DNA of 64,000 nucleotides, from the IMG/VR virus record IMGVR_UViG_3300031993_000069. One strand, written 5' to 3'. Both the position numbers and the translations under genes were made by a program. The stretch comes from a virus. The notes under the pieces are model-generated. The model made no database searches, had not been told where the DNA came from, and saw nothing but the letters and a program-made list of their open reading frames with translations. Below are positions 15,074 through 41,400 of the stretch, one piece after another (position 1 is the stretch's first letter; the number at the start of each line of letters is the position of its first letter).

Positions 15074-15089
15074 CTTGTATATTATTAAT

Positions 15090-15534: not shown

Positions 15535-15539
15535 AATAT

Positions 15540-16180: not shown

Positions 16181-16184
16181 AAGC

Positions 16185-16274
16185 ATGTTAAACTTAGTTA
16201 CTGTTAACGTTAGACCTACAGCAACAGCCAAACCAGCGTTGGTAAGTTTTGATATGCTCATGACCTCTGATAGA
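16185..16274 (+). CDS. small peptide (29 aa) candidate
   Basis: RBS AAGGAGAAAAAGC then ATG; followed by a perfect terminator. Confidence 0.25.
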
Positions 16275-16302
16275 TAAGTTAACTTAAAAACTTAACTAAG
16301 AT

Positions 16303-16335
16303 ACCGCAGTTGTGATGAGCAGCTGCGGTTTTTTT
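16303..16335 (+). terminator. rho-independent terminator
   Basis: CCGCAGTTGTGATGAGCAGCTGCGG followed by TTTTTTT. Confidence 0.85.
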
Positions 16336-16506
16336 AAGAAAAAATAACTAGCAATGTAAAACTCATAAGAGAGACGTGACGAAACCAAGGACTTCTGTGC
16401 CTTGGTCCCAAAAGTCTAAGGGATGAAATGAAGCCAGCAGTGCACAAAAAACTTGTTGCCTGATAAAAAAAGAGGCTGGTCAGGCAGAAGAAGAACGAAA
16501 GCTAGT

Positions 16507-16590
16507 TAATTATATGGGCCGATAGTTTAATTGGGAAAATACCCGCCCTGCAAGCGGGAGTTAGGGGTTCAAATCCCCACGTGTCCACCA
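16507..16590 (+). pseudogene. tRNA-like element (Ala-TGC-like anticodon arm, T-arm and CCA) with a non-pairing acceptor stem
   Basis: CCCGC-CCTGCAA-GCGGG anticodon-like arm, GGGGTTCAAATCCCC T-arm and a 3' CCA. The 5' GGGCCGA does not pair with the 3' CGTGTCC. Confidence 0.3.
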
Positions 16591-16595
16591 TTTAT

Positions 16596-16671
16596 GGGGG
16601 TGTAGCTCATCTGGGAGAGCACTTGATTAGCATTCAAGAGGTAGCGAGTTCGATCCTCGTCACTTCCACCA
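16596..16671 (+). tRNA. tRNA-Ala(AGC), A34
   Basis: Acceptor GGGGGTG/CACTTCC with G3·U70 and A73. Anticodon stem CTTGA/TCAAG with loop TTAGCAT. CCA. Confidence 0.6.
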
Positions 16672-16735
16672 GACAGAACCTGTGCTTATTTCTAACGTTA
16701 AATTTGGGATTTAAAAAGTAGCAGCCAGGTCAATT

Positions 16736-16811
16736 GCCGCCTTAGCTCAACTGGCAGAGCAACCGCCTTGTAAGCGGTAGGTTACTGGTTCGATTCCGGT
16801 AGGCGGCACCA
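16736..16811 (+). tRNA. tRNA-Thr(TGT)
   Basis: Acceptor GCCGCCT/AGGCGGC, loop CTTGTAA, CCA. Confidence 0.8.
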
Positions 16812-16815
16812 CTTT

Positions 16816-16892
16816 GGGGGTGTAGCTCAATTGGGAGAGCGCTCGCCTTGCAAGCGAGGGGTTGCGGGTTCAAGTCCCGTCACGTTCCACCA
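16816..16892 (+). tRNA. tRNA-Ala(TGC) with a 1-nt bulge in the 3' acceptor strand
   Basis: Acceptor GGGGGTG with G3·U70, anticodon stem CTCGC/GCGAG with loop CTTGCAA. The 3' strand CACGTTCC carries one extra nt. CCA. Confidence 0.6.
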
Positions 16893-17049
16893 CTAAAATG
16901 TAAGCCTATACTTATTTCTCCTCCTAAATTGTTGGGGGCCTTAGTTAGGCAATCAAAAAATTCATGCCACGGAAGGAAAACCGTATAAACCCTTACAGCT
17001 TCGTTCTTAGCCAGACGTAGACTAAGATAAAGTTAAGCTGATGTAATTT

Positions 17050-17126
17050 CGGGAGTTGGCTCAGCTTGGTAGAGCACTTGATTTGGGATCAAGGGGTCAA
17101 GGGTTCGAATCCCTTACTCCCGACCA
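17050..17126 (+). tRNA. tRNA-Pro(TGG)
   Basis: Acceptor CGGGAGT/ACTCCCG, loop TTTGGGA, CCA. Confidence 0.8.
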
Positions 17127-17251
17127 TTAGAGAACCTGTACTTATTTCTTAGCTTTGGGAGCCGCTGTTTGTTGGTTCGAGTCCAGCCTTCCCGACCATT
17201 ATCGGGAAGTAGGCAAATTGGTAAAGCCGGCGTTTATTAGTCAGGTCATAT

Positions 17252-17327
17252 GCGCTTTTAGCTCAGTTGGGAGAGCGTCTGCTTGACGTGCAGAAGGTCG
17301 TAGGTTCGAGCCCTGCAAGGCGCACCA
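17252..17327 (+). tRNA. tRNA-Val(GAC)
   Basis: Acceptor GCGCTTT/AAGGCGC, anticodon stem TCTGC/GCAGA with loop TTGACGT, CCA. Confidence 0.75.
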
Positions 17328-17331
17328 TTAT

Positions 17332-17408
17332 GCTCCTCTAGCCCAACTGGCAGAGGCAATGAGCTCAAACCTCATTCAGTATCGGTTCGAATCCGATGGG
17401 GAGTACCA
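17332..17408 (+). tRNA. class I (77 nt) tRNA with anticodon CAA (a Leu anticodon) and short variable loop
   Basis: Acceptor GCTCCTC/GGGGAGT, anticodon stem ATGAG/CTCAT with loop CTCAAAC, 5-nt variable loop, A73, CCA. Confidence 0.5.
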
Positions 17409-17427
17409 AAAAATTATTAAAAAACTG

Positions 17428-17456
17428 TTTACAACGCAGAATAAATGTTGTATAAT
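17428..17456 (+). promoter_or_regulatory. sigma70-like promoter
   Basis: TTTACA-N14-TTGTATAAT. Confidence 0.55.
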
Positions 17457-17566
17457 TATGAATGTAAGGTCGCGATGTGTGAGCATTAAACTATCGGCCC
17501 CTCACCTCCGAAAACCGTAGGCCGAGTCGGACCTTATATATAGATTGTTCAAAAAGGAGAAGAGTT

Positions 17567-17647
17567 ATGATGACAATGAACAAGAAAAACATCAAGAATA
17601 GAAAAACTAGAAAAACTAGTTCATTTAGTCATGGCTTAATTCAGTAA
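17567..17647 (+). CDS. small basic peptide (26 aa) candidate
   Basis: RBS AAAAGGAGAAGAG then ATGATG; followed by a terminator hairpin and T-run at ~17678-17712. Confidence 0.25.
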   Translation: MMTMNKKNIKNRKTRKTSSFSHGLIQ

Positions 17648-17772
17648 AACACTAATAATACGTTAACGTAAGATAGAGTGCCGAGTGGTTAAGCCGCCCG
17701 GCATTTTTTCTGGGATTACGTTAGCGCAACGGACAGGGACGACATAAGAGCGTGCTTTTCCAGAAATCACAT

Positions 17773-17849
17773 ACCTCCGTAGCTCAACTGGACAGAGCAT
17801 CGGTCTTCTAAACCGCAGGTTGGGCGTTCGAGTCGCCCCGGGGGTGCCA
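17773..17849 (+). tRNA. tRNA-Arg(TCT)
   Basis: Acceptor ACCTCCG/CGGGGGT, loop CTTCTAA, CCA. Confidence 0.75.
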
Positions 17850-17853
17850 AATC

Positions 17854-17928
17854 GCGTCCATAGCCAAGTGGTATGGCAATCGGCTTTTAACCGATGTACC
17901 GAGGGTTCGAATCCTTCTGGGCGCACCA
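17854..17928 (+). tRNA. tRNA-Lys(TTT)
   Basis: Acceptor GCGTCCA/TGGGCGC, loop CTTTTAA, CCA. Confidence 0.8.
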
Positions 17929-17933
17929 CATAT

Positions 17934-18010
17934 GCCTCCATAGCAAAATTGGCTAATGCACCTGACTCTTAATCAGGGGATTCTGGGTTCGAGTCCCAGT
18001 GGGGGTACCA
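17934..18010 (+). tRNA. tRNA-Lys(CTT)
   Basis: Acceptor GCCTCCA/TGGGGGT, loop CTCTTAA, CCA. Confidence 0.75.
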
Positions 18011-18012
18011 AT

Positions 18013-18088
18013 GCGCCGGTAGCTCAGCCGGTAGAGCACGTGACTTTTAATCACGGGGTCCAGAGTTCGAACCTCTGCCGGCGCACCA
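18013..18088 (+). tRNA. tRNA-Lys(TTT), second copy
   Basis: Acceptor GCGCCGG/CCGGCGC, loop CTTTTAA, CCA. Confidence 0.75.
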
Positions 18089-18090
18089 AT

Positions 18091-18165
18091 GCTGATTTAG
18101 TTTAATTGGTAAAATAATTCTCTCGTAAAGAATAGTAGTGTGTTCGAAACATACAATCAGCACCA
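18091..18165 (+). tRNA. tRNA-Thr(CGT), AT-rich
   Basis: Acceptor GCTGATT/AATCAGC, anticodon stem ATTCT/AGAAT with loop CTCGTAA, T-arm GTGTGTTCGAAACATAC, CCA. Confidence 0.7.
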
Positions 18166-18261
18166 TTAGAGCCTATGCTTATTTCTAGCTCAATGAGAGC
18201 GTTTGACATTTAATCAAAAGGTATAGCTAGGCCATTCTTGATAAATCTACTGTATAATATA

Positions 18262-18500
18262 ATATGGTTGCGATGAATTTTGCAGTTTCGACCCATGTGC
18301 ACAGAAATAGAAACTGCCTATAGGTTAATGTTGACCATAGTTATTGGTGCAGAGTACGTAATCTGCGAGGTAAACTCCGGTGTATGTTCATTCGCCGACC
18401 TATGAAGCTAAAAAATGAACGGAGATAGCGTATAAAAATGATTTATGAAAAGTACGTAACGCCCATGAGGAGAGGCCTCATGCTTCAATAAAAAACAAAA
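18262..18500 (+). ncRNA. unidentified structured RNA candidate (~240 nt) behind the 18250 promoter
   Basis: ORF-free. Ends in the hairpin CATGAGG-AGAG-GCCTCATG immediately before the next tRNA. Confidence 0.3.
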
Positions 18501-18503
18501 CTT

Positions 18504-18579
18504 GCCGGCTTAGCTCATCTGGTAGAGCAATTCACTAGTAATGAATAGGTGGTCAGTTCGAGTCTGGCAGCCGGCACCA
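18504..18579 (+). tRNA. tRNA-Thr(AGT), A34
   Basis: Acceptor GCCGGCT/AGCCGGC, anticodon stem ATTCA/TGAAT with loop CTAGTAA, CCA. Confidence 0.6.
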
Positions 18580-19685: not shown

Positions 19686-21257
19686 ATGCCATTAGGTGCT
19701 ATTATCGGAATTAGTGTTGGCGGAGCTCTCTTGCTCTTCTTAATCATCTTCTTAGCTTGTGCTTATACAAAAGCTGGACCAGATGAAGCCATCATGATCT
19801 CTGGCTTAGGTAAGAGAAAAATTTTAAGAGGAAAGGCTGGTTGGAGATTACCATTCTTACAAAGAAAAGATAAATTATCTCTCAAAGTATTCCAAGTTGA
19901 CATCAAAACTCGTGAATCCATTCCAACAAATGAATTTATTAATATTAATGTTGATGGTGTTGCGAACTTAAAAGTTTCTAGTGACCCTGAGTTATTAGAA
20001 AGAGCATTTGAAGCCACTCTTGGTATGTCACAATCTGACTTGATTGAACAAGTCAAACAAGTTCTTGAAGGTAACATGCGTGAAATCATTGGTACTGTTG
20101 GTATTAGACAACTCGTCCAAGACCGTAAAGGTGTTGCTGAAGCTGTTAAAGAAAATGTCATTCCTGACATGAATAAACTTGGTCTTGAATTAGTTAACTT
20201 CAACATTCAAAACTTCTCAGACAATAACCATGTTATTGAAAACTTAGGTATTGATAACATCTCTCAAATTTCCAAAGAAGCTGCTATTGCTAAAGCAAAT
20301 GCTGAAAGAGACGTTTCTATTGCCCGTGCTGAAGCTGCAAAACAAGCCAATGAGGCTGAAGTTGCTTCTAAGACAGCTATTGTTCAAAAGAACACAGAAT
20401 ATAGCCTTAAAGAGTCTGAATTAAAGATTAAAACAGATACTGCGAAGGCTGACGCTGATGCTGCTTACAAAATTCAAGCACAAAAGAGACAAGAAGAAAT
20501 CAATACTGCTACTGTTAATGCTGAAATTTCTAAGAGAGAACGTGAAGTTGAACTTGGAAACAAAGAAGTTGAATTAGCAGAAAAGAAATTAGCTGCTACT
20601 GTTAACAAGAAAGCTGATGCTGATAAGTATGCTGCAGAAAAAGAAGCTGAAGCAGAATTATACAGACGTCAAAAGAAAGCTGAAGCTGAACTTATTGAAG
20701 CTCAAAGACAAGCTGAAAAACTCAAAGTTGCCGCTGAAGCTGAAAAACTTGCTCGTAAAGAAAAAGCTGATGCTGTTGCTATCGAAGCTGAATCTCAAAG
20801 AGTTGCTCGTGCTAAAGCTGCTGAAGCTATCAAGTTAGAAGCTGAAGCTAATAAGCAAGCTGCTCTTGCTGAAGCTGAAGGTATTAAGGCAAAAGGTGAA
20901 GCTGAAGCTACTGCAACTAAAGAAAAGGCAGAAGCTATGAAGGCCTTCAATGATGCTGCTACATTAAAGCTTGTTTTAGATAGTGGTGTCTTACCAGAAA
21001 CTGTCAGAGCTTACTCTGAACCAATCGCTGCTGCACTTGCACAAATCGATGGTATCACAATGTACGGTTCCGGTAATGAGGCTCAATTAGTTGAGAACAT
21101 TCAAAAATCTGGCGATCAAATCTTTGCGGGTTTAAATAAGACATTAGGTATCGACCTTAAATCAGTTCTTCTTGGTTACCTTGGACCAAAAGTCTTAGGG
21201 GCTGTCGCAGAGACTCCAACCAAGAAAACAAAAGGTAAAACAGATTTAACTGAATAG
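19686..21257 (+). CDS. flotillin-like SPFH/band-7 domain protein
   Basis: N-terminal TM helix, an SPFH domain, and a long A/E/K-rich coiled coil typical of FloT/YuaG. Confidence 0.8.
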   Translation: MPLGAIIGISVGGALLLFLIIFLACAYTKAGPDEAIMISGLGKRKILRGKAGWRLPFLQRKDKLSLKVFQVDIKTRESIPTNEFININVDGVANLKVSSDPELLERAFEATLGMSQSDLIEQVKQVLEGNMREIIGTVGIRQLVQDRKGVAEAVKENVIPDMNKLGLELVNFNIQNFSDNNHVIENLGIDNISQISKEAAIAKANAERDVSIARAEAAKQANEAEVASKTAIVQKNTEYSLKESELKIKTDTAKADADAAYKIQAQKRQEEINTATVNAEISKREREVELGNKEVELAEKKLAATVNKKADADKYAAEKEAEAELYRRQKKAEAELIEAQRQAEKLKVAAEAEKLARKEKADAVAIEAESQRVARAKAAEAIKLEAEANKQAALAEAEGIKAKGEAEATATKEKAEAMKAFNDAATLKLVLDSGVLPETVRAYSEPIAAALAQIDGITMYGSGNEAQLVENIQKSGDQIFAGLNKTLGIDLKSVLLGYLGPKVLGAVAETPTKKTKGKTDLTE

Positions 21258-24158: not shown

Positions 24159-25109
24159 ATGATTAGAGATGCACTCGGTGACAGAATGAAAGGTTATGAA
24201 GCTGTCACAAAAACTACATTAGTAAGCAGAATGCCAGTCATTATTAGATTAGATGGCTGTCATTTCCATACTTTTTGTCGTGGATTTAAAAAGCCATTCG
24301 ATCCTTTAATGGTTAAGACCATGCAAGCAACCATGAAATATCTCTGTGAGAATATTCAAGGCTGTGTTTTAGGCTATACTCAAAGTGATGAAATCACTCT
24401 TGTTTTAGTCGATTATAGAAAGCATAATTCCTCTGCTTGGTTTGATAATGAAGTCCTTAAAATTACGTCAGTCTCTGCTTCTTTAGCAACATTTGCATTC
24501 AATAAATTCTTCAACGAATTCTATCTTGAACAACTTGCTGAAAAGGGTGAAGCTGATGAATATGATTTAGTCTATGATAGAAAACGTAGAATTGGTGCAT
24601 ACTTCGATGCAAGAGTTTTCAATGTCCCAAGAGAAGATGTTACAAACTGTGTTCTTTGGAGACAATTAGACGCTGAAAGAAACTCAATCAATTCTCTTGC
24701 ACAATCTTTATTCAGTCATAAGTCTCTTCAAGGTTTAAATCTTAAAGCTACTATGACTAAGATCGAAACAGAAAAAAGCATTGTCTGGGGTGATTTACCA
24801 ACAACTCAAAAACGTGGTTCTTGCTGCATCAAAGATGTTTGGTATACTTTAGATGATGGTCAAAATGTTAAGAATAAGTCACACATTTGTTATAAAGATA
24901 AAACAGGTGAATTCTATTTTGATGGTGATGGTTTCTACTTCTATGCTACTGGCTTAAAAGATAACCTTAATTGTGCTTTTTCTGCCCAAGGTGTTAAGAT
25001 GAATGTTAAAGAGCATTCTGCTTGGAGAATTGATAATGAAATTCCAAGATTTATCGATGAAGGCAGAGAATATATCGAAAAGTTAATCTATCCAGAAGAC
25101 GAGGAATAA
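24159..25109 (+). CDS. Thg1-like protein (tRNA-His guanylyltransferase / 3'-5' nucleotidyl-transferase family)
   Basis: VIIRLDGCHFHTF...FKKPFDP...GYTQSDEITLVL matches the Thg1/TLP core R.DG..F..F.....KP.D...YGQSDE.S.V. Confidence 0.7.
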   Translation: MIRDALGDRMKGYEAVTKTTLVSRMPVIIRLDGCHFHTFCRGFKKPFDPLMVKTMQATMKYLCENIQGCVLGYTQSDEITLVLVDYRKHNSSAWFDNEVLKITSVSASLATFAFNKFFNEFYLEQLAEKGEADEYDLVYDRKRRIGAYFDARVFNVPREDVTNCVLWRQLDAERNSINSLAQSLFSHKSLQGLNLKATMTKIETEKSIVWGDLPTTQKRGSCCIKDVWYTLDDGQNVKNKSHICYKDKTGEFYFDGDGFYFYATGLKDNLNCAFSAQGVKMNVKEHSAWRIDNEIPRFIDEGREYIEKLIYPEDEE

Positions 25110-25112
25110 TAT

Positions 25113-25544
25113 ATGGGCAGAAAAGAAACAGTCAGAGAATTTATTAATAACAGGTCAAGTGGTGCTTGGATCACTTTTGAATTTGATGTAGATAGAGTCT
25201 CTGAGACAGTTTTTAAGCAATATCGTTGTATTAGCGTTGAAGACTTCCTAGTTGAATATGGCAGAAGAAGTAGTTATATTCTTGATGATTATGTTGTCGT
25301 AAGCACTGAGGAGTCTTATCCAAGCAATTCACAAGGACAAACTATTTGGATGACATTACAAAAGAAATCTGATTATGTTGAAACCTTAGAGCCAATAAGC
25401 TTAACACCATTTGAAGTTGAAGATATTGTAACTAAGTTAGAAAAAGTTAAAAAGTCAATTAATGAAATCTCTCCTGTTTATGATGATCCAGCTATTAAAG
25501 AAATAGATAGCATTATTAGAAAGCTTGAGGAACATGATGGATAA
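25113..25544 (+). CDS. hypothetical protein (143 aa)
   Basis: ORF in a tightly packed operon. Confidence 0.5.
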   Translation: MGRKETVREFINNRSSGAWITFEFDVDRVSETVFKQYRCISVEDFLVEYGRRSSYILDDYVVVSTEESYPSNSQGQTIWMTLQKKSDYVETLEPISLTPFEVEDIVTKLEKVKKSINEISPVYDDPAIKEIDSIIRKLEEHDG

Positions 25545-25848
25545 GGAAGTTATTGAACTTTTAAATAATATTCTCAAAGCAGCTTATGAATTCGGTTGGG
25601 AAGTCGGAGCGAGCTGGGATATTAATCATTATAAAGATTTAGTAGGTCCTAGTGGCTATCTTTATGATGATGCTAAAATAGATAATAATTTAAGAGAGAA
25701 TATTACAAAATTACTAGCAAAACTTGGATATAATCCAGAAAATTTCTATATTTATACTAAAGAAGATACTGGTTATCATTCATGCGACTGGGAATACATT
25801 GCACCAGTTATAGACTCTAAGGAGAAAGAAGAATGTCAAGAAAATTAA
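25525..25848 (+). CDS. hypothetical protein (107 aa)
   Basis: Overlapping start. Confidence 0.5.
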   Translation: MRNMMDKEVIELLNNILKAAYEFGWEVGASWDINHYKDLVGPSGYLYDDAKIDNNLRENITKLLAKLGYNPENFYIYTKEDTGYHSCDWEYIAPVIDSKEKEECQEN

Positions 25849-26168
25849 AGTTACTTGCAGGTGATACAATCAATTATATTGATTTAGAATTAACCTGGTG
25901 GATTGACGCTTATGATGAGGATAGCGGAAAGTTTCCTTATAAAATAAGATTTAGGGGAGCCGATGGAGGTAACTCTCAAACTATTGGTTGGAAAAAAGAA
26001 AAAGATAGAGATAACTATCTTGAAAAATTAGAAAAACTTCTTCATCCAGTTACATTAGAGGATGATGAGGAAGAGGAAGAAGCTGTTGTTCCCGAACCAA
26101 AAATACCTGAAACACCAAAAGAAGATGTATTAGCATCAGATTACGACCCAATGGAGGCAATTAAATAA
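25833..26168 (+). CDS. hypothetical acidic protein (111 aa)
   Basis: Overlapping start; DDEEEEE tract. Confidence 0.5.
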   Translation: MSRKLKLLAGDTINYIDLELTWWIDAYDEDSGKFPYKIRFRGADGGNSQTIGWKKEKDRDNYLEKLEKLLHPVTLEDDEEEEEAVVPEPKIPETPKEDVLASDYDPMEAIK

Positions 26169-26371
26169 TGGAAAGATTACAAGTTAAATTCTGCAAAGGC
26201 GAAAAAGAATTAAATGAATTTTTAATGACATTAAATATTGGACATGTTGGTTATCCACAACTTCAATCAATTAACTATGTCGCTGAAATTCAAGGCAAAG
26301 GTTCTGATGTTGAAATCAATATGGGTAGCTCAGTCATTGCTGCCGTTCAATACTTTGTAGAGGTAGAATAA
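26168..26371 (+). CDS. hypothetical protein (67 aa)
   Basis: ATG overlaps the upstream stop. Confidence 0.45.
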   Translation: MERLQVKFCKGEKELNEFLMTLNIGHVGYPQLQSINYVAEIQGKGSDVEINMGSSVIAAVQYFVEVE

Positions 26372-26667
26372 TGGACCCAATTTTCAATGAATCCGAAAGA
26401 ATTGAAAGATTAATCAAGGCAAGCAAAAAGTCTCCTGAAAAAGCCATTTTAAAGCTTGTAGAGGAGACTGGTGAGCTAGTCAGTGCCATCGAAGCCTTGA
26501 CTAGTTATAAACATGGAGATTATACTCATGTTCAGGAAGAGGCAATTGATGTCCTTCAATGTGCAATGAGCATATATTTCTTAATACAAAACGAAAAACC
26601 ATTTGATGGCGAAGCTATTATGAAAGCTAAGGATGACAAGTGGGAAAATAAGTATTTAAACAAATAA
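26371..26667 (+). CDS. MazG-like nucleotide pyrophosphohydrolase domain protein (98 aa)
   Basis: EETGELVSAIE...EEAIDVLQCAMSIYFL matches the MazG EExxE/D...DxL pattern. Confidence 0.5.
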   Translation: MDPIFNESERIERLIKASKKSPEKAILKLVEETGELVSAIEALTSYKHGDYTHVQEEAIDVLQCAMSIYFLIQNEKPFDGEAIMKAKDDKWENKYLNK

Positions 26668-26883
26668 AATTTAATTATCGTATAATATTTTAGAACTTCT
26701 ATGTAGGGCAATTTTATTCGCTAAATTAATGTGACGACGTAAGTTGTCATTACATAGAAAAGGGCACAACCACGGTAACGTGGCGTCGCAAAACTAAAGG
26801 GCCTTGGGAGAGGCAGCCAGTTGCTTCTGTGAAACCGTTATTCATGGAAGTTTTTTATTTATATGGACAAGGAGAACACACAC

Positions 26884-27537
26884 ATGAAATTAAGAAACAA
26901 ATTAGCAGCTATCACAGCTGCAGCAATGTTAGCATTTGCCGGCTTAGGCTTTGCTGCTTGGACATTCACAAATTCTGTCGAAGTTGAGAAAGAAGCATCT
27001 TCAATTGTTACAGTTGCAGTTGAAACAAATGCAGTTAAGCTTTATACAGATTCTGGTTTAACGGATGAACTAGAAGCGAGTGAACACATTTATTTAATTG
27101 CAGATGCTCCATCAACAGGAGCTGGACATTTAGCAGGAAAAGGATTACATTGGTCTCTTTCTGCTGATAATTCTACAGATCCTATTACTGCACTTTATGT
27201 TGTTCCACAAATTAAGTATAATGCTGAAGACCTTAAGGATATTACAACTGTCAACTCCACAATTACTGCTACTTCTGATGCATTAGTTGTTGAAGATGTA
27301 AATTATACCTATTTCAGTATTGCTGCTTTAGCTATTGATAATGGTGCTTCAACTGTCAATTTAGGCAGTGCAACAACAGATACAGTAATTGCATCATCTG
27401 CTTATACTTTAAATCTTCCAACACTTGAATATACTTATGTACCAACAAATGTTGCTGAAGTTACTGCTATGCATACAGCATTAGCTGCTGCAACTATTAC
27501 ATTCAGCATTTCAAGTGAAATTTCAAGCGTTGCTTAA
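26884..27537 (+). CDS. TasA/camelysin-like secreted protein with SipW-cognate signal peptide
   Basis: The signal peptide ends ...LGFAAWTFTNSVEV, which resembles the TasA/CalY motif GGTWAAFND. Ser/Thr/Ala-rich mature region. ATG at 26884 behind RBS AAGGAGAACA. Upstream motif GCTAAATTAAT at 26720. Confidence 0.6.
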   Translation: MKLRNKLAAITAAAMLAFAGLGFAAWTFTNSVEVEKEASSIVTVAVETNAVKLYTDSGLTDELEASEHIYLIADAPSTGAGHLAGKGLHWSLSADNSTDPITALYVVPQIKYNAEDLKDITTVNSTITATSDALVVEDVNYTYFSIAALAIDNGASTVNLGSATTDTVIASSAYTLNLPTLEYTYVPTNVAEVTAMHTALAAATITFSISSEISSVA

Positions 27538-27553
27538 TTAAGAGGTTTAATTT

Positions 27554-28360
27554 ATGACATCAATTACGATTATTACAATAGTCGTAGTTGCACTCTTAAC
27601 TGTATTAATCTTTGGTTTAGCTTGGCTAGGTTATAGCTCTTGTTTAAAAAGCTATAAAATGGAGGTTGACCAAGGAAAACATGATGCTGAAATATTCAAA
27701 GAGTATCATTCTAAAAAGAAAAATAAAGGAGGACTAATTGGACTTATTGGTTCATACTTAGCCCTCCTCGCTTTATCTGGGCTATTTGTAACGGGAATAG
27801 TCTATAAAGCAAATGGTGAAAATTTTACTATTAATAATCAAACAGCCTTAGTTATTAAATCAGGGTCTATGTCTGAATATTATAGCGAAGAACTTGCTAA
27901 TAAATACTCAATTTATCCAGAATATCACTTTAATGTTGGAGATATTTGTGTATTTGAAAAGGTATCGGAAGATACTGAATTAGTTGAGGGTGAAGTCTAC
28001 GGCTATAAATACAAGAATATTATTATCACTCATAGACTTATTGGGTCTTTTGGAGATACGTATGAGTTTAGAGGAGATAATAACCCAGTTTCTGATGGCC
28101 TTTTAATTAAAAAAGCTAGTATTTTATATCATTATACTGGCAATAAAGTACCAGGAATTGGTGCCTTTGTTTTATATGCACAATCTTATTTTGGTATTTG
28201 GTCATTAGTTGGTATTATTGGGGTAATGACTAGCTCTGAGGTTGTTTATCATAAGATAGATAAGATAAATAAAGAAAGAGATAAAAAGCTTGATCCAAAG
28301 TTTATTCCGGAACCACCAAAGCTAAAAGAAAGAAAGCGAGGTAAAAAACATGAAAAATAA
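27554..28360 (+). CDS. ER/archaeal-type signal peptidase I (S26B, SipW-like)
   Basis: Box B VIKSGSMSEYY, box D IIITHRLI (catalytic His) and box E RGDNNPVSDG (GDNN, with no SPase-I Lys box) are ER/SipW-type hallmarks. N- and C-terminal TM segments. Confidence 0.75.
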   Translation: MTSITIITIVVVALLTVLIFGLAWLGYSSCLKSYKMEVDQGKHDAEIFKEYHSKKKNKGGLIGLIGSYLALLALSGLFVTGIVYKANGENFTINNQTALVIKSGSMSEYYSEELANKYSIYPEYHFNVGDICVFEKVSEDTELVEGEVYGYKYKNIIITHRLIGSFGDTYEFRGDNNPVSDGLLIKKASILYHYTGNKVPGIGAFVLYAQSYFGIWSLVGIIGVMTSSEVVYHKIDKINKERDKKLDPKFIPEPPKLKERKRGKKHEK

Positions 28361-29336
28361 ATTTTTACTCGCATTAATTAGCTTATTTGCTGTAACAGCT
28401 TTGATTGGAACAACCTATTCAGCTTGGACATTTACTAATGACCCAAGTATAACTAATAATGTTCAAATTGAAGTGCCTACTTGGAATTTCTTAACAGACC
28501 CCGGTTTTGCTAAACTTGATAATGTTAGAAATGTAACAAACTTAGTAGCTTCAAAAGAAGAGTCTATCACAGTAGGAAGTTCTGAGGCGCTTAGATTAAC
28601 TAGCACAACTGGAACATCTACAAAAGACCATACTGTAAATATTAATTTAGACCGAGACTATTATCTTTCTGAAATTCAATTCTTTAAGTTTGAGTTTGAT
28701 TATTATCATAGATATAAGAGAGAACAATATAATAAAGGTTTCCCAACAGTTCAATTTACAATTAATAATTCTACTTTGGGAACAAATCAAGGTGGAACTG
28801 ATACTTGCACAAGCAAGTCTCCATTTGTTGCTACGGCTATCGATGAAGATTGGTGGCATTTAGAATATTATATATTCGCTCATATGCCAACAATTGCCAA
28901 AGGTAAAGATACTCCAATTGCTACAACTAAAAAGATAAATGGCGTTAGAATCACTGATAGAACTATGTATGACTACGCTGGCACAACAGCTTATGTAGTT
29001 ATAGATAATATGCAATTTAGTGCTGAACCAACTTCAAGATTAGGTATCTTCAATAGATGGACAAGTGATGTTGTTGGAAATTTATTCTGGTTTAAAGTTG
29101 CTTGGTCTAGCGAAATACATTCTGTTAAGCTTTATTCAAGTGATACAAGCATAGCTGTTCCAGAATTCGATCCAACCGATACAGTTTCTACAAGCTATCC
29201 ATTCCCAAATGGAAGCCCATTCTACTTTGAATTATTACAGCCAGGAACTGTTAGATTTACTGCTGTATTAGAAATTGGTGATAATCATGATATTTATACC
29301 ATTATTTCTGATAATTTCACGGTAAATGCAGCTTAA
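28350..29336 (+). CDS. TasA/camelysin-like secreted protein with SipW-cognate signal peptide (paralog of 26884)
   Basis: Signal peptide ...LIGTTYSAWTFTNDPS; 328 aa. Confidence 0.6.
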   Translation: MKNKFLLALISLFAVTALIGTTYSAWTFTNDPSITNNVQIEVPTWNFLTDPGFAKLDNVRNVTNLVASKEESITVGSSEALRLTSTTGTSTKDHTVNINLDRDYYLSEIQFFKFEFDYYHRYKREQYNKGFPTVQFTINNSTLGTNQGGTDTCTSKSPFVATAIDEDWWHLEYYIFAHMPTIAKGKDTPIATTKKINGVRITDRTMYDYAGTTAYVVIDNMQFSAEPTSRLGIFNRWTSDVVGNLFWFKVAWSSEIHSVKLYSSDTSIAVPEFDPTDTVSTSYPFPNGSPFYFELLQPGTVRFTAVLEIGDNHDIYTIISDNFTVNAA

Positions 29337-29351
29337 AATATCAAAATTTAT

Positions 29352-30170
29352 TGTATAGTAATATATAGTTCCCCTGTGTCGGGGGTCCTGGTGCTAAAAA
29401 GTGGTTGTCATTGCCGGCCCGGCTGCCTCGGTAAGTCGCGGTTATCGATATAACCCGGTGTCCTTGCGGACTATTTCCAGGAATAACGAGCGCGAGCCCA
29501 CCTAGTCGGAGAGTCAGACCGCAACACCTGACGTTAAATCAATGTTCCTCCGTGAATAGGCAGTGGGAGAAGAGTAGGATACAAATGGCAGCGTGCCCGC
29601 AGAAGAAACTATTTCAATAATTTACAACGCTTAGGCGTTTAAATAGAGGATGACTAGTAACGCAAAGGAGTTCGACCTCGATAAAAAATGAATCCTTAGG
29701 TCAAGCTGAAATGACATAATTCAGCAGAATAAACTGTGTAAATTCGTGGCGTGAAAGAACGAGGCTGAAGATGAGCTGAGGCCGTGACGCTGGCCCACGT
29801 TAAAAAGAGAAGGAACGGGACTCTCATTAAATTGAGATTAGAGCCTACATGGTAGGCGGTAAGATGAAAATATAGGACGATGCCTGTCAGCATTGAGTAA
29901 ATGGGTAAGACTCTTGGAATAGACCTTAGATAAAGCCTTTAGAGTAGCGAAACCATAACACCTATATGGCCCTACAGCGGTCCCAGACGGACTCCACTTA
30001 ACCCCCCTCATTTATTATATCCCGAAGATGTAAACATCATCATTACTTGTAAGGCCTAGGTAATAGGCAAAGAAAAGGGAGAATGGGGCAGCTCATAAGA
30101 CACGTCCGAAGATGACGTTAAAGGTCTAATGAAGCTTAACTCGCAAAATAGTTAAGTTTTTATTTTTCTT
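29352..30170 (+). ncRNA. giant structured ncRNA candidate (~0.8 kb, GC-enriched, ORF-free)
   Basis: Follows promoter TTGTATAGTAATAT (29342) and opens with a GC hairpin CCCCTGTGTCGGGGG. About 48% GC against ~30% in the flanks. No ORF above 65 aa on either strand. Confidence 0.45.
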
Positions 30171-30289
30171 AAAAAATGATACGCTAAATTTATTACTACG
30201 GACTTTCCAAAAAAGTATCGTATAATATTTTAACGGATTCGCGAATTGGTATCCATAGCAATTCAGTCCGAAAGAGCAAGGAGAAAGAT

Positions 30290-30643
30290 ATGGAAAGAGA
30301 CACATTAGAACAATTCAGTAATAATCTTGACGAAAGTCGTAAAGCTGAATTAAAAGAACTAAAAAACTTACAAGAAAAGAAACTCAATAATGCAGAAGCA
30401 TTAATTGAAAAAAAGAAAATCTTAGCAAGTGAAGCGAAAAACATCGCAGAAACTAGCCAAATTCCTCTAACGCATATTTATAAATGTATTAGAGAGGAAG
30501 CTAAGGAAGGCAGAGTAAAGCTTGATTGGGGCATTTATAATATGAGCTCCAAATGCATTGAACTCACAAAAGAAGCCTTAATTAAAGATGGCTATTCAGT
30601 CGAAGTAAATAAAGACGAAAACTTATTAAAGATTAGTTGGTAA
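30290..30643 (+). CDS. hypothetical coiled-coil protein (117 aa)
   Basis: Promoter TCGTATAATATTT (30221), RBS AAGGAGAAAG. Confidence 0.55.
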   Translation: MERDTLEQFSNNLDESRKAELKELKNLQEKKLNNAEALIEKKKILASEAKNIAETSQIPLTHIYKCIREEAKEGRVKLDWGIYNMSSKCIELTKEALIKDGYSVEVNKDENLLKISW

Positions 30644-30649
30644 TATCGG

Positions 30650-32830
30650 AGTAATCCGTTATTATATATCTTCCTGAAAATCTTTGGACAAAAGCCAAAG
30701 CGAATGATTGCATAAGTTGTATCGAGTGCAATCACGAGAAAGGGTACGCTGGGATGCTGGGAAGTAAAATATAGTGCACCAGTAATTGTCGGTGGCAATA
30801 TAAAACCGTTCGACGGAGATACAACTCTTGATCGATAAAGGCCTTGTTGATGGGTGAGGCTAGTGACCTCTTCAGGTAGAAATGAATCAACAGTATTAGA
30901 GCTTAAAAAGCACTCATAGAGGAAAACACCGAAATGTTCCAAAGGGGCTGACGAAATCCTAAGCGTCTATAAATAAAGTTTAGTGGAGCTTTATGAACGA
31001 GTGGTTGATTACCCAACGGTCCGCTTTACGAAGCGTTAAGAGGTTGGTAGGGGTTAAAGTTGTCTACCTATAATCACAAAACAACTGCTTCCTTGGCTAA
31101 TTTAGTCCGGTAGGAAGCTTATCAAAAGAGAGGTTGGGCATTCCTCCCCACATTGTGGTATTCCTTAATTGGATTTCTTCGGTAATTTATTACCGCTTCC
31201 TTGCCCGGCGGGCTAGGCTACCGCCCTCCTTCTGTTACCTAGCTAATGCAGAACGGTATTTTCTTAGGATATACTTCAGGTATGTCCTCTGATGCTAATT
31301 ACATCTGAATAAGATGCGATTATATATCAACATGTTGATTGCCAGTAAGCCATATGACTAGACATGAGCTTGCTCTTGAAAAGGCGCAACGGGGTTTGAT
31401 GAGAAAGTGACCACAACTAGTTATTAAAATCATCCGAGGATGCTATAAATACCTCGTTAAAAACTAATAGTTAAATAACCGTTCTCGATACGCCTCTTAA
31501 CAATGCGCAACAATCGGGCCTTCGTAATTCATAACAAAACCATGAGTATGGACGCATACGATGATTGGCACAAAAGGAATTACAAATCTGGCCGACCCAA
31601 TGGATAGTTTGAGGTGCGACTCCTCAATTGGTCTCAAAAAGCCCATGCAGCAGTAACCAGGGCTAATACTAAGACGTCAAAACGTGAAAGAGTCTGCTGC
31701 AAGAAGGAAAACTATAAACCTCCGGTTGGTGCCCGGCTAAACTGTAAGAAACAAGCTGCCTTTAAACAGTATAAAGATTAGGGGTGCGGAACTATCGCTG
31801 ATGTTAGCCTGTAGGAAAAGCGTCATAATGAGAGGCCAAAGGTTGTTGTGGTAAGAGCATGAACCGCGTTAAGCACAAGCGGGGAACAGCAGTAATGAAA
31901 CCGTGGTTTGGAATGACCTCATAACTAACCTAAAAATCCACAGAAATCGTTTCTGGACGTACAAACCAGATGGTAACCTTGAAATAGGTGCGAGAAGGAA
32001 AACTTAGCCAAACCCGTATTTAGCTTAATGTGGAAGCTTTATTCCAGCTTTGTTAGTGTGCTTTGTTGATACGTTGTTATCTAACAATGGCGGTTCGTCC
32101 GCAGGAGCAGCATTAAGAAATTCGTCTAAAACTATTCTATACATAATTTATTTATAGATTATGTAGGGGGAACCAAATACCGAGCCCATGAATCATAAAG
32201 ATCGGCGTCGAAGCAACGAAAGCTGCCATGTTGTCCGTGCACGGCGAAAGAAGGAACGGTCTAACGCAGTTGTCTAACGGATTGATTCACCGTTATAGAT
32301 TCTCACACAGAGAGGAGTACTGCTAAAGTAATGGTCAACATAAGGTTTGCGGTGATTATCTATGATAATTATAAAAACCTCGGTGAACTAGTTGACAGAG
32401 GCACGAAAAACCGCAATTTTCAAAAGAGAAGGAGCTTAATTGTTCCAATCTATCGTTTCCACCACCTGGTACTGATTATCGTGGAAGTCTTCTATGACTA
32501 TTTGTGGACGACCTAGCGCCTATATGGCTGACACTGTAAGACTTAGCATCTTATAAGGCTAGAGAAAGCCGGGGAAACTCCAGGACGGGTCTTGTTATTA
32601 CCCTGCTAAGAGGCGAAAGCAATATAAAAACACCCGAGTAAATCTAAGAACCTGCAATTTGGGGTTGAGCCCAGTTGAGAATTGAATAGGTAGTGCATTC
32701 ACTCAACAATGCTTATTAGCTTATGGCTCGAGGTTATCTCGCGCGACTAATAAGAAGAGCCCATGACGATAGGGAGCCGAATGGCATGCTATGTCCAGCA
32801 CTACATTTTTTTATATTTAAAATACTGTAT
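30650..32830 (+). ncRNA. second giant ORF-free structured RNA region (~2.2 kb), possibly several ncRNAs
   Basis: 2.2 kb with only two marginal ORFs (61 and 116 aa, the latter antisense and overlapping). GC-enriched, with many long-range complementary segments. Bounded downstream by the 32826 promoter. Confidence 0.4.
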
Positions 32831-32892
32831 AATATAATAGTTCAAAAGTCTCAAAAGGACGATTTGTAGCCCAAAAGGCGAAGGAGAATTAT

Positions 32893-33759
32893 ATGTCACG
32901 ATTTTCAGGAAAATGTGATTTATTTGATCACATCTCAGGACGTGGCGGCTGATATGACAAAGACGGAAATCCCGTTAAGTTTGGTCAAGAAGGCGTTGGC
33001 GTCTATTATTCAGATGAAATGCAAGATTTTATTGCATTCAAAAAAGAAACTGGCGGGGTAATCCATCAACATAAAAAAGTCAAGGTTGATGAGTGGAATC
33101 AAGATGAAGTAGCTAAACATTGCAAGTTTTTTAAAGTTATTCCTCATGAAGAAATTATTAAAGATAAGCGCTATAATGGTGGGGAGAGAAAACAAACAAC
33201 TTATACCTATAGCTATTATGGTAAAGAATATACATTAAAAGAGCTTAATAAACATGGTGTTTGGGTAGAAATTGATATTCATTTTAATACAATTTTAGAC
33301 TTAATTCCTTATTATCCATACTTAGTTGCTTGTGCAGCTTATAGTGATGGAAAAGCTTATGTTGTTATTTCACAAGAAAGCTATGTTACAGAAGAAAGAG
33401 ATGAACATATTGAACATGGATATTTCAGTGAATTCTGGGAACATTATGCTAAGGAATTACAAGACCATTATAGAGAAATTGTCTTAACTTATTTCAATCC
33501 AGAAGGAAGAGAAAGAGTTAAAGAAATTACTTTTGATGAAAATGGATTAGGTTATGTAGGTGAGCCTATTGATTATAACTTTGATCCAGATTGGCGTTGG
33601 GAAGATGGAAAGCGCCATGACCATTGGACTTCCCCTAAATTAGTTGATGCTGAAAAAGGCTGTATCAAAATTAGTGAGGAAGACCAACGACACTATATTG
33701 GAAATAAAGCATTAGTCTATTATGTGACCACAAAAAATGCTAAATTATATTTGGGGTAG
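32893..33759 (+). CDS. hypothetical protein (~288 aa) with in-frame TGA at 32950
   Basis: ATG at 32893 with RBS AAGGAGAATTAT. Frame-continuous with track ORF 33019..33759 across one TGA (GRGGWYDKDG). Confidence 0.6.
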
Positions 33760-38486: not shown

Positions 38487-41400
38487 ATGGTACAATTTCC
38501 AAGTGGTTTAATAATTACATCTAAAGAGCCAATAGATTGCCGTTTAGCTTTAACAAATGCTGAGATGCTTGCAATCAGCCTTGCAATCAGAAATAATCGT
38601 TCAGGATCAGCGATTGAAGACATTAGCGATTATAACATGCCGGATAAATATCTTAGCATTAGCGAAGATGACGGCAGAGTTTATTATTTCTATTGTGAAG
38701 ACCCAAACATTGAGTCAAAGCATAATGACTGGCAAGAAGAAACCGGTTATTTTAAAGCTTCCGAATATAGATTAGATGAAGCTTTAGCAGCAGAAATTGC
38801 TAGAGCTATTGCTCGTGAAGATGATATTGATGAAAGAGCTTTACATAAAAAGTTCTGGGGACCAGCTAAAGTTGAGTCTGTCGAGGGCAAAAAGATTTGG
38901 TTTGGTGAACAAGAATATCGTAATAACTTAGTCTTAACTGGAACAGACATCACCGGCGTTAGAAAATTAAAAACAGATTGGGCTTATATTGAAGAAGCCT
39001 TTATTGATAAAGAAAAGACTGGAACTGCAGACATTTTAACTGCAAATGTTGAAACTGCTAATATTGAAACAGCAAATATCGTTACTGAAAACGTTCAAAC
39101 TGAAAACATCGATACTATCAATGCTTTACATGCAAATATCGAAGATGCTAATATTGGCACAGCAAAAGTTGATACTGCCAACATTGAAAACGGCAATATT
39201 GAAAATGAAACAGTCAAAGTTTCTGGTATTGTAACTGCAAATATCAATAAAGCAAATGTTGATACCGCAGATATTTTACATGCTCACATTGGTGATGAAA
39301 CTGTTACAAGTGCAAATATTAATGATGCAGATATCGCAACATTAGATGTTACTATAAAAGCTGAAATTAAAGAAGCTTCTATTGAAACTGTCGCTATTGA
39401 TGAAGAAACAGTAACTACTTCAAATATTGATAGTGCAAAAATTAGAACTGAAGAAGTTGGTACTTCTAATATTACAACTGCAAATATCAATCATACTCTT
39501 ACTGATTTATTAGATGCTGATGATGCTAATATTGATACATTAGATGTAAATGTCAAAGCCAATATTAATGATGAGTCAGTTGGAACCTCTGATATTGGAA
39601 CAGCAGGAATTGGAACTGCAAACATCGGAACAGCTAACATTGGCATTAAAGCAAATATCAATGAAGCGGCTATTGGAACGGCTGGTATTGGTGATGCTGA
39701 TATTGCTACTTTAGATGTCACAACAAGCGCAAATATTAAATCAGCTTCTGTTGAAACTGCAACAATTGATGCTGAAACAGTCACAACTTCTGATATAACC
39801 ACAGCAAATATTGGCACTGCTAATGTTGGAACATTAAATGTCGGAACAAAGGCAAATATCAATGATGAGGCTGTCGGCACTTCTACAATTGGAACATTAC
39901 ACGTTACTGAAACTGCTGAAGTTGACGGAAACATCACTACACATTCAGATTTATATGTAGAAGCTCAAAAGACTGCTGCTAATACAGAAAATGCACTTAA
40001 GATTAATTCTTCTGGAAAAGTCGAAAAAGTTGATTTAACAACTGCTTCCCCAACCAAGAATGGTAAGACTTTAGAATATATCGATAGTGTTTCACAAGAC
40101 AGCATTGGTAAGATTTCTGCTACAAAGAAAGAAATCACATTAACTGATGGCGGTCAAGGAACACTTACATTAAATGACAGTGATATTACTATCACAAATT
40201 TAACAACTTCTGGAAAACCAACATTCACAGGAGTTACACTTTCTAGTGCTCCATTAGCAGATACAGATGCTACAACAAAGAAATATGTAGATGATGCTGA
40301 TAGTGATTTACAATCTCAAATCGATACTATTGAGTCAAGAACAGATGTCATTGACGTTGTTGCTTGCTATGACTATAATAACTACGAAGAACCAAAACCA
40401 ACTTCTGATATCGTCCACTATGATACTTCAAGCGGAAAGATTTCAGACAAAGACGTTGTTAAGGTCTTAATTGATGAAACTCACAATGATGCTGTTTCTT
40501 ATTATAGATATTCTACAAGCACAAGCTCATTCAGCTATGTAGGTACTGTTGAAGCTTATTATACTAAAGCTGAAACAGATGGCTTTGTTTCTGGTTTACA
40601 AGCTCAAATTGATGAAGATATCGAAGTTGTTCCTTATCAAACAACTACTGCTTTAACAGATAGCCAAATGGCAAAAGCTTATGCTGGCAAATTGGCAGTT
40701 TATTTTAGTAATCATTTATTTATTTTAACAAATATTAAAACTGACAAACTTATTTTTAGCTATTTTGAATATTCTGGTGAGGATCGTACAACACCATTTC
40801 CAGTAAGTAAAAAATTATTAACATATGAGATTCGTTTAGACAGGGCAACAAAGATGTTCTCAGGTCATGGCGGATCAGAAGAGAATATCATTTCTGCCTA
40901 TGATAATTCTATTGCAAATAACTTAATTCCAGATGCTGCTGGAAAGCAAATCATCCGTGCTCTTAACTTAAGAAAAACACAAGATATGATTGCAAATGTT
41001 TATGATGCAACTGCAACATATGCTTATGGTGATTATTGTATTTATCAAAATGATTTCTATAAATGCACGACTGCAATTACTTCAGCAGAAGCTTGGAATT
41101 CTAGTCATTGGACAAAGATGACTTTGGCTGATGCTAGTAATGAAGATGATATTGAAATTATTGATTATCAATCCAATACTCCATTAACAGATGCTCAAGT
41201 AAAAAAGGCTAAAGAAGGTAAGTTAGTAGTTAAAGGTAATTGAGGCTATGGATTAACTTATTATGCAAAAGCCTTTAGACAAGACAATAATTATATTTAT
41301 TTTTTAGGCAATCAAAAAGAAAGTACAATATTTAACCCAGATAGTCCAACTAGACCTCCTGTAATGGCTGGCATTTTTATGCCTTATTGTACACTATCCT

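Follow-up and report, generated by a model that had tools for sequence, protein, structure and literature searches.

[quoted passage not shown] We consider it probable that this cassette is a surface-protein export module captured by these phages and gated, through a riboswitch of ON polarity, by the c-di-GMP of the host; given the riboswitch upstream, the phage therefore probably remodels the surface of the infected cell while its host is in the sessile state. The window analysed is a stretch of 64,000 nucleotides from an IMG/VR virus record (IMGVR_UViG_3300031993_000069), in which the cassette occupies positions 26884-29336 of the + strand.

An open reading frame check places the three genes close together or overlapping, with 16 nt between gene A and the peptidase gene and an overlap of 11 nt between the latter and gene B (Table 1). 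An alternative ATG for gene A, at 26863, falls within the terminator tail and takes in the Shine-Dalgarno sequence. Since searches with the three frames found 333, 92 and 168 homologues and the genes recur in synteny on many contigs of 100-240 kb, they are real genes and not chance frames, and together they form one operon. A conserved block 3' of gene B (29360-29615) returned z = +0.61 in a thermodynamic test, so a stable structure downstream of B is unsupported. Neither a nucleotide search of positions 24500-32000 nor a tblastn search with the peptidase and B found anything matching among GenBank/INPHARED phages, and the three cassette proteins are without a significant match in PHROGs and PADLOC.

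Table 1. Features of the cassette and its leader (positions are those of the window)
Feature	Position	Strand	Remarks
Sigma-70-like TAAACA-18-TATAAT	26657-26686	+	Sequence scan
Phage promoter-like motif GCTAAATTAA	26720-26729	+	~25 nt 5' of the riboswitch; putative function; the 'late-gene motif' of the sequence-only reading
c-di-GMP-I (GEMM-I) aptamer	26753-26828	+	Rfam RF01051, 52.4 bits against a gathering score of 35
Intrinsic terminator hairpin GCUUCUGUGAA / UUCAUGGAAGU plus UUUUUUAUUU	26823-26861	+	Terminator scan, RNAfold
Shine-Dalgarno AGGAG	26870-26874	+	9 nt 5' of the gene A ATG; read from the sequence
Gene A	26884-27537	+	217 aa, counted from the conserved MKLRNK start; exported protein
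Signal peptidase gene	27554-28360	+	268 aa
Gene B	28350-29336	+	328 aa; exported protein

The assignment of the middle gene to the SipW/Sec11 (S26B-like) signal peptidases, proposed in the sequence-only reading, is borne out by HMM searches. The boxes on which that reading relied, SGSM (residues 103-106), THRL (159-162) and GDNN (174-177), are present, as are the signal-peptide ends that it quoted for A (GLGFAAWTFTNS) and B (GTTYSAWTFTND). Across 30 aligned homologues S105, H160, D175, N176, N177 and D181 are invariant; so is M106 within the nucleophile box K102-S-G-S105-M106, and the equally invariant T159-H160-R161 and G174-D175-N176-N177 make His, not Lys, the general base. The protein matches the NCBIfam models for SipW (NF046067, E 4.3e-12, 46 bits, residues 103-244) and for archaeal signal peptidase I (TIGR02228, E 5.4e-10, 39.3 bits, residues 73-228), with scores far under the equivalog cutoffs of 190 and 51.85 bits, so we regard it as a divergent relative of SipW and not as a SipW equivalog; Pfam S24/S26 models gave no match at E<=1. 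PDB sequence searches with A, B and the peptidase returned only one weak match (E 0.16), between the peptidase profile and SEC11C (7p2q), where THR and GDNN align with the IVHRV and KGDNN boxes and His160 falls at the catalytic-His box. Hydropathy indicates an additional N-terminal transmembrane segment with a basic cytoplasmic loop, then the catalytic domain (S105, H160, D175) on the extracytoplasmic side, and towards the C-terminus a hydrophobic segment and a tail rich in basic residues.

The two neighbours are Sec-type exported proteins whose signal peptides share the end motif G-x-[GT]-[FY]-[AS]-[AST]-W-x-Φ (Φ being F, L, M, Y or I), and this motif is found in both at every locus that has both. 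Beyond it they part company: a profile-profile comparison aligns A with B over the signal peptide and some 10 further residues only (83% probability, E 9e-6). In A, the signal peptide MKLRNKLAAITAAAMLAFAGLGFAAW is almost invariant and the mature protein, by fold comparison an Ig-like beta-sandwich, diverges fast; in B, which has many invariant His, Glu and Asp residues, the signal peptide ends in TTYSAW and the mature part is predicted to comprise a CBM-like jelly roll and, C-terminally, a Big_2-like Ig domain. The conserved AWTF mature N-terminus precedes a flexible segment that is left undocked on the AF2 monomer of each protein (residues 27-44 of A, 24-50 of B), and in 4 of 62 distant A relatives the protein is joined to LRR adhesin repeats of the BspA type. 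With its CBM-like and Ig domains, B is probably a glycan-binding protein, with plant fibre or cell-wall polysaccharide as its predicted ligand, and the variable Ig-like A probably forms an exposed surface or adhesive layer. Neither protein gave a match to a hydrolase, an amidase or a holin, whether by family or by fold.

The proposal that A and B are TasA/camelysin-like did not survive the HMM and structure comparisons, which rule out TasA homology: Pfam, including PF12389 (Peptidase_M73), is without a match to either at E<=1, PF12389 is likewise absent from the 62 distant A relatives, and the folds recovered do not include a TasA-like jelly roll. The companion claim, that the signal peptides resemble the SipW-cognate motif, stands in part, in that A and B do share a signal-peptide class, but the corresponding model, TIGR04088, is not matched in NCBIfam by A or B at E<=1 or by the 62 relatives at E<=0.01. 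The signal peptide of TasA ends in GGGTWAAFND, which resembles the GFAAWTFTN of A at the level of the motif only.

Directly upstream of gene A, and overlooked by the sequence-only reading, lies a c-di-GMP-I aptamer with a P1 helix (about 26753-26759 pairing with 26825-26831) and a first hairpin capped by the GNRA tetraloop GUAA. The equivalents of the Vc2 ligand contacts G20, A47 and C92 (GGCA, CGCAAA and CAGCC) match the consensus, and the aptamer is predicted to respond to c-di-GMP; the c-di-GMP-I-GGC variant was rejected, its model scoring 45.6 against a cutoff of 59 and the A47 equivalent being A (CGCAAA). RF01051 scores 49.5-58.8 bits at four related loci, and a CM of our own places the aptamer in front of the cassette at 31 related rumen loci, representing 24 distinct sequences. 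Among these 24, 96.7% of cells are paired, as against 24-40% in slid controls, and compensatory double changes occur at 10 of the 18 aptamer pairs (78 compensatory cells; 0 of 500 shuffles). The tetraloop varies as GUAA, GAAA, GUGA or GCAA, and P1 is a duplex of 4-7 bp whose sequence covaries from locus to locus.

The aptamer is missing from about 9 of some 36 non-redundant loci, so c-di-GMP gating is not obligatory for the cassette. Four of these nine or so carry a different conserved leader, and the bacterial copy described below and some divergent phage copies have no such leader. Searches for the aptamer with filters off in L003, L004, L042, L045, L046, L062-L064 and others returned noise only, the L003 leader has no Rfam match at E<=5, and a scan of IMG/VR for the alternative leader recovered only a contig that was already known.

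Upstream of the aptamer, the motif GCTAAATTAA is, as first noticed, a genuinely recurring element: 10 exact copies lie on the + strand of the window where 0.69 are expected, all of them intergenic, often right after a terminator and 30-60 nt 5' of a Shine-Dalgarno sequence and ATG. Downstream, the 5' arm of the terminator is the 3' strand of P1, an overlap that recurs in 18 of 19 distinct leaders, and in five of the loci (L001, L018, L044, L050 and L052) the 3' arm of the terminator includes the Shine-Dalgarno GGAGG. Because the P1 and terminator helices are mutually exclusive, the layout suggests an ON switch. In C. difficile every class I riboswitch that was tested is an OFF switch (PMC6200980), and the ON polarity proposed here thus rests on the reading of P1.

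The trio is syntenic over about 60 loci with differing flanks. An identical trio, lacking the riboswitch, follows secE-nusG-rplKAJL in the chromosome of a Christensenellales MAG with no phage genes nearby. More distantly, A-like proteins adjoin SipW-domain proteins on unrelated contigs; one of these (L067) encodes a SipW-domain protein of 652 aa (E 3.6e-15) and, after it, a tandem run of four A-like paralogues, and another (L068) has a similar arrangement. This recurrent pairing, the kept synteny and the common signal motif are consistent with cleavage of the A and B signal peptides by the co-encoded peptidase, as we would predict from the sequences. They also define a wider family, so far unannotated, in which SipW-like peptidases of rumen Bacillota are paired with cognate G-x-G-F-[SA]-A-W signal peptides.

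The window itself contains tail-fibre genes, PhoH, Thg1, 37 tRNAs and a tmRNA, and has relatives in IMG/VR. A bacterial origin for it and its close relatives is ruled out by tail fibres, single-strand coding, tRNA arrays and IMG/VR membership; for one locus, L064, a bacterial origin is accepted. The cassette is placed among accessory genes with no lysis genes adjacent, and the window ORFs scanned include no GGDEF/EAL genes. The best reading is that the phage carries a copy of a surface-protein export module of cellular origin, and the cassette points to Christensenellales-like bacteria, a likely host within the Bacillota, as the cells infected by these uncultivated phages.

What the cassette does for the infected cell we infer from its parts. 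Transcription would start near GCTAAATTAA; at low c-di-GMP the terminator (26823-26861) would fold and the operon would stay silent, whereas at the high c-di-GMP of a sessile or biofilm host the ligand would lock P1, sequester the 5' arm of the terminator and let RNA polymerase read through. A and B would then be made, moved out by the host Sec system and freed from the membrane by the co-encoded peptidase, which would recognise the common signal end G-x-G-[FY]-[AS]-A-W-x-F. Outside the cell, B would bind plant fibre or cell-wall polysaccharide and A would form the exposed or adhesive layer, so that the infected Bacillota host would attach differently or present a changed surface.

Several other functions can be weighed against this one. 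It is conceivable, though we hold it unlikely, that A, B and the peptidase make up an undescribed fibre or adhesion system of rumen Clostridia, captured by phages and rewired to c-di-GMP-ON control, in which B would be the glycan-binding anchor and the variable A would polymerise through its conserved AWTF N-terminus; such a system may be analogous, not homologous, to TapA-SipW-TasA, and through it the virus would set, by the second messenger of the host, when an infected cell attaches to plant fibre or biofilm. A shade more doubtful is polymerisation of the TasA/TapA type itself, in which A, B or both would assemble after SipW-type processing into donor-strand-exchange or amyloid-like fibres of a biofilm matrix or virion coat. 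In its favour, the succession of substrate, SipW-type peptidase and substrate mirrors the tapA-sipW-tasA order; the undocked flexible segment behind AWTF is what a donor strand would look like; A evolves fast, like major fibre subunits; and control by c-di-GMP would suit a matrix role. The further idea that such fibres sit on the virion is unlikely, given the Sec signals, the accessory-gene setting, a riboswitch for a host messenger and the trio in a bacterial chromosome, and the cassette is best read as not being a virion component.

Superinfection exclusion or receptor masking, with B binding wall glycans and A shielding them so that competing phages are blocked or progeny kept from adsorbing to doomed cells, seems to us improbable. 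Favouring it are a phage-borne cassette among accessory genes, a B with a glycan-binding-like fold and an A whose mature part diverges quickly behind a frozen signal peptide, the last being compatible with an arms race, but the lack of a PADLOC match, the chromosomal trio away from any phage genes and the distant A relatives fused to adhesin LRR repeats speak against it, and the use of c-di-GMP gating to such a function is not obvious. We give very little credence to an export step in lysis, in which the peptidase would process a secreted lytic or wall-binding B in a Sec-dependent pathway: c-di-GMP-I riboswitches in the lysis module of PhiCD119-like prophages provide a precedent (PMC3649979) and B is rich in invariant His, Glu and Asp, but no lytic family or fold was detected for A or B, no lysis genes adjoin them and a bacterial chromosome also has the trio.

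Should the export module captured by rumen phages work as proposed, it would show clearly that a huge phage of the lytic type can use a riboswitch of its own to read a second messenger of the host and so time an auxiliary function, here surface-protein export by way of a signal peptidase that the virus itself encodes. In the literature we found no paper tying a c-di-GMP riboswitch to SipW or using the expression 'phage-encoded signal peptidase'. If phages control how fibre-associated bacteria attach, this would be a new viral influence on the colonisation of plant fibre in the rumen, and the leader of the cassette offers a compact, testable candidate for a class I ON riboswitch.

Among known systems, the closest in design are tapA-sipW-tasA of Bacillus subtilis and sipW-tasA-calY of B. 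cereus, where an ER/archaeal-type Ser/His peptidase is likewise encoded between or beside its own exported substrates, the predicted ones in the phage being A and B. As with tapA-sipW-tasA, the signal peptides end in a special sequence of small residues and aromatics followed by F-x-N/D, and the products are, for A and B by prediction, extracellular and part of a sessile lifestyle. Unlike in that system, A and B show no homology to TasA, TapA or CalY in either HMM or fold comparisons, their signal peptides are missed by TIGR04088, the peptidase differs from SipW both in its low score and in its additional N-terminal transmembrane segment, cytoplasmic loop and long basic tail, regulation is predicted to be by a c-di-GMP riboswitch rather than SinR, and the carriers are huge rumen phages. 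With eukaryotic SEC11 and archaeal signal peptidase I (MEROPS S26B) the enzyme shares the SGSM and GDNN boxes as well as an H-R box where bacterial enzymes have their Lys box; in contrast to SEC11, from which it is very distant in sequence, it is stand-alone and not part of a complex, with a different membrane topology.

The leader, in turn, recalls Bc2 of B. thuringiensis, described as a class I ON riboswitch that precedes cap, the gene for a collagen adhesion protein (PMC11218506, citing Tang 2016), in that a GEMM-I aptamer and a terminator-type platform of ON polarity, here predicted, precede a surface or adhesion gene of the Bacillota; adhesins and pili are also under c-di-GMP riboswitch control in C. 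difficile (PMC6200980). Unlike in the Bc2 and C. difficile cases, as far as these accounts describe them, the downstream genes here form a secretion cassette that brings its own signal peptidase and is part of a phage genome. Phage-borne c-di-GMP-I riboswitches are themselves known from the PhiCD119-like prophages of C. difficile (Cdi1_4 and Cdi1_5; PMC3649979), and the present one differs from these in that it stands, at 31 loci, before a conserved export operon of three genes carried by huge phages.

The interval 26884-29336 is filled by three plus-strand open reading frames, namely gene A, a peptidase gene and gene B (see table), which form a single operon, as only 16 nt separate gene A from the peptidase gene and the latter overlaps gene B by 11 nt. 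A longer frame for gene A, starting at 26863, was rejected because 56 of 56 homologues begin with MKLRNK and the start at 26884 has an AGGAG 9 nt ahead of it. An earlier sequence-only reading described these genes correctly, and every motif that it cited is found in them; what it missed is the c-di-GMP-I riboswitch upstream, a family that also precedes gene A in related contigs.

Features of the window, the peptidase and related loci
Feature	Location	Strand	Remarks
PhoH	window 4288-5196		accessory
Dense RNA gene island	window 7350-18579		36 tRNAs, tmRNA, ROOL RNA
tmRNA	window 14038-14415		tag DKTNFMAHLANNQMVAARA
tRNA called tRNA-SeC	window 15090-15186		anticodon tca
ROOL RNA	window 15571-16127		213 bits
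SPFH/flotillin-like protein	window 19686-21257		accessory
Thg1-family tRNA-His guanylyltransferase	window 24159-25109		accessory
MazG-like pyrophosphohydrolase	window 26371-26667		accessory
c-di-GMP-I riboswitch	window 26753-26828	+	Rfam 52.4 bits (gathering score 35); 55 nt ahead of gene A
Terminator hairpin and U-run	window 26823-26861	+	immediately 3' of aptamer
Gene A	window 26884-27537	+	217 aa
Peptidase gene	window 27554-28360	+	268 aa
Gene B	window 28350-29336	+	328 aa
Conserved DNA blocks, examples	window 29347-29611, 30663-31294, 31585-31940		
Two CBM_5_12-containing proteins	window 38487-42671		upstream of collagen-repeat genes
Four large collagen-repeat tail-fibre-like genes	window 42933-58305		GC up to 0.50 at 56-58 kb
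Thymidylate synthase	window 61294-62139		accessory
Motif GCTAAATTAA	window 358, 658, 3495, 4200, 7597, 16144, 26720, 36018, 36613, 50238	+	
Peptidase N-terminal TM	residues 4-22		strongly hydrophobic
Peptidase second TM	residues 61-79		ahead of catalytic domain
Alternative leader	L003 5242-5340; L020 249-345; L051 224-315; L059 2264-2350		ahead of gene A
Extra aptamer	L038 2418-2499		downstream of gene B, ahead of ORF MRQKNVKIYRAV...
Extra aptamer	L033 657-737		ahead of ORF MEALVIFAYYGIGLG..., itself ahead of gene A

The peptidase has no Pfam match. Its NCBIfam matches are to SipW (NF046067) at E 4.3e-12 and to archaeal signal peptidase I (TIGR02228) at E 5.4e-10, with scores far under the equivalog cutoffs in either case. 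Across 30 homologues (60-89% identity), S105 (SGSM), H160 (THR), D175-N176-N177 (GDNN) and D181 are invariant, and the sole match of the profile among PDB sequences, human SEC11C at a weak E of 0.16, places THR on VHR and GDNN on GDNN. Together these matches, residues and the SEC11C alignment identify the protein as a divergent Ser/His signal peptidase of the ER/archaeal, SipW-like type, in agreement with the sequence-only assignment. The protein also has a basic loop, a hydrophobic segment towards the C-terminus and a basic tail that is conserved. Some homologues carry an insertion of ~45 aa directly C-terminal of the THRL box, and many share a conserved cytoplasmic tail, RKIKAQFKRRDGTxVxIY ... 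KEPTAEAPSKTHEEKEGAEDEK (alignment A1: P0019, P0038, P0059; P0010, P0015, P0026 and others). The insertion and tail hint at a second, non-catalytic role, such as the C-terminal part of B. subtilis SipW reportedly has.

Proteins A and B both begin as Sec signal peptides typically do, with an n-region, an h-region and an end motif. When the two are compared by hhalign, the first ~37 columns align and nothing beyond (83% probability, E 9e-6), and at every locus with both proteins the signals end in G-x-[GT]-[FY]-[AS]-[AST]-W-x-[FLMYI]; what they have in common is their signal peptide class. In 56 homologues of A the signal peptide is near-invariant, but identity in the mature part is no more than 30-45%, with the peptidase and B on the same contigs retaining 50-89% identity. 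A confident AF2 model of A (pLDDT 82) shows a single helix in an otherwise all-β sandwich. The neighbours had been read as TasA/camelysin-like, an identity that we reject because A, B and 62 distant relatives of A give no match to PF12389 (TasA/camelysin) or TIGR04088 (SipW-cognate signal). BspA-type LRR adhesin repeats are fused to four of these 62 relatives.

Support for the aptamer structure upstream is strong. It is of the canonical class, with A at the A47-equivalent position and the GGC-variant model under its cutoff, and a covariance model made from five copies retrieves 31 copies (24 distinct), in which pairing holds for 96.7% of cells (24-40% in slid controls), both sides have changed in 10 of 18 pairs, and the 78 compensatory cells are equalled in 0 of 500 shuffles. 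The 5' arm of the terminator (CUUCUGUGA) doubles as the 3' strand of P1 (CAUAGAA/UUCUGUG), an overlap seen in 18 of 19 distinct leaders. Because ligand-stabilised P1 and the terminator exclude each other, we infer an ON switch, in which c-di-GMP would favour read-through into gene A. In five leaders the Shine-Dalgarno GGAGG is also buried in the 3' arm of the terminator, with the ATG ~8 nt beyond. A class I ON switch precedes an adhesin gene in B. thuringiensis (Bc2/cap; PMC11218506), but the class I switches of C. difficile are all OFF (PMC6200980), for which reason the ON polarity is kept provisional.

Upstream sequence is long enough in ~36 non-redundant loci, of which ~27 have the aptamer. 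Four others carry instead a conserved, terminator-ended two-hairpin leader, with the order GCTAAATTAAATGAGTT, a covarying hairpin, AAACGCCCCCT, a second hairpin, GGTGGCG and a U-run. At E<=5 Rfam yields no match for this leader, a scan of IMG/VR gave no further sequences, and it may be a novel riboswitch or attenuator. A few loci, the bacterial one included, have neither leader. Since such alternative and leaderless loci exist, c-di-GMP control of the cassette is common but not intrinsic. In two loci extra c-di-GMP-I aptamers lie ahead of small membrane-protein ORFs adjoining the cassette, and small TM ORFs of similar kind occur at L003 5122-5222 and L059 2151-2260; in C. difficile, small membrane proteins are regulated by a c-di-GMP riboswitch (bioRxiv 10.64898/2026.06.10.731418).

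The entire trio is also found in a bacterial chromosome, on a 205-kb contig of the ruminal Christensenellales MAG_149 (L064 486-7777; JBGUQC010000002.1), directly 3' of secE-nusG-rplK-rplA-rplJ-rplL and a rubrerythrin gene, followed by cellular genes on the opposite strand and without a riboswitch. This suggests that the cassette is of cellular origin and points to a lineage that may host the phages. Far more distant A-like proteins also adjoin SipW-type proteins. At L067 (612-5250) and L068 (684-3710) between one and four A-like paralogues in tandem, their signals ending ..G-S-G-F-S-A-W.., stand beside large SipW-type domain proteins in cell-like surroundings (LuxE/LuxC/DegV; HIT). L067 encodes a SipW-domain protein of 652 aa (E 3.6e-15), then four paralogues, their signals ending ..GSGFSAWVF or similar, with LuxE/LuxC/DegV next; L068 resembles it, its SipW-type protein being 757 aa. 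These loci represent a wider unannotated system, and, with the Christensenellales trio, they argue that the pairing of a SipW-like peptidase with the G-x-G-F-type signal class is probably old and cellular. The phage cassettes are probably captured copies, and most of them have acquired the c-di-GMP leader.

The window is a fragment of a huge phage, with its genes on one strand throughout, 37 tRNAs, a tmRNA and a ROOL RNA, and genes for PhoH, a Thg1-like enzyme, MazG, an SPFH protein, thymidylate synthase and several collagen-like tail-fibre proteins. Relatives of the cassette occur in IMG/VR contigs of 67-232 kb and many rumen metagenome contigs, and in L001, L002 and L008 it is likewise flanked by ROOL, tmRNA and tRNA arrays. 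Motif GCTAAATTAA occurs 10 times on the plus strand of the window against 0.69 expected, always intergenic, often directly 3' of a terminator and 30-60 nt ahead of genes or RNA genes. Its probable role is that of a phage-specific promoter element, either early or late. The ORF-poor 3.7-kb stretch 3' of gene B (29337-33018) holds ~10 DNA blocks sharing 89-95% identity with L014, L054 and L003, where proteins are only ~80% identical. It contains no tRNAs and no Rfam match at gathering score, and its position is occupied by tRNA arrays in other phages. The first block follows a TATAGT -10-like box, but its folding z-score (+0.61) is unremarkable. The blocks may be novel ncRNAs. An abiF RNA-like hairpin at 31484-31519 scores 34.5 bits (E 0.002), just below the gathering score of 37.

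The best-supported reading is that the cassette is a second-messenger-gated export module. High host c-di-GMP would lead to phage transcription of A, the peptidase and B; A and B would be exported by Sec and then released by the dedicated peptidase, and once outside the cell, B (CBM-like) and A (variable, Ig-like) would change adhesion or the cell surface. The sequence-only reading had proposed fibres on or around the virion, or matrix remodelling; incorporation of A and B into the virion is unlikely, as both are Sec-exported. The cassette lies among accessory genes outside the structural module, with flanks that vary between phages. A TasA-like fibre is possible solely as a non-homologous analogue, and roles in superinfection exclusion or lysis have little support. 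For the export module, then, the kinds of component are already known, namely an S26B-like peptidase and a GEMM-I riboswitch, and it is their combination that appears to be undescribed: phage-borne, with non-TasA substrates, a new cognate signal class and riboswitch control.
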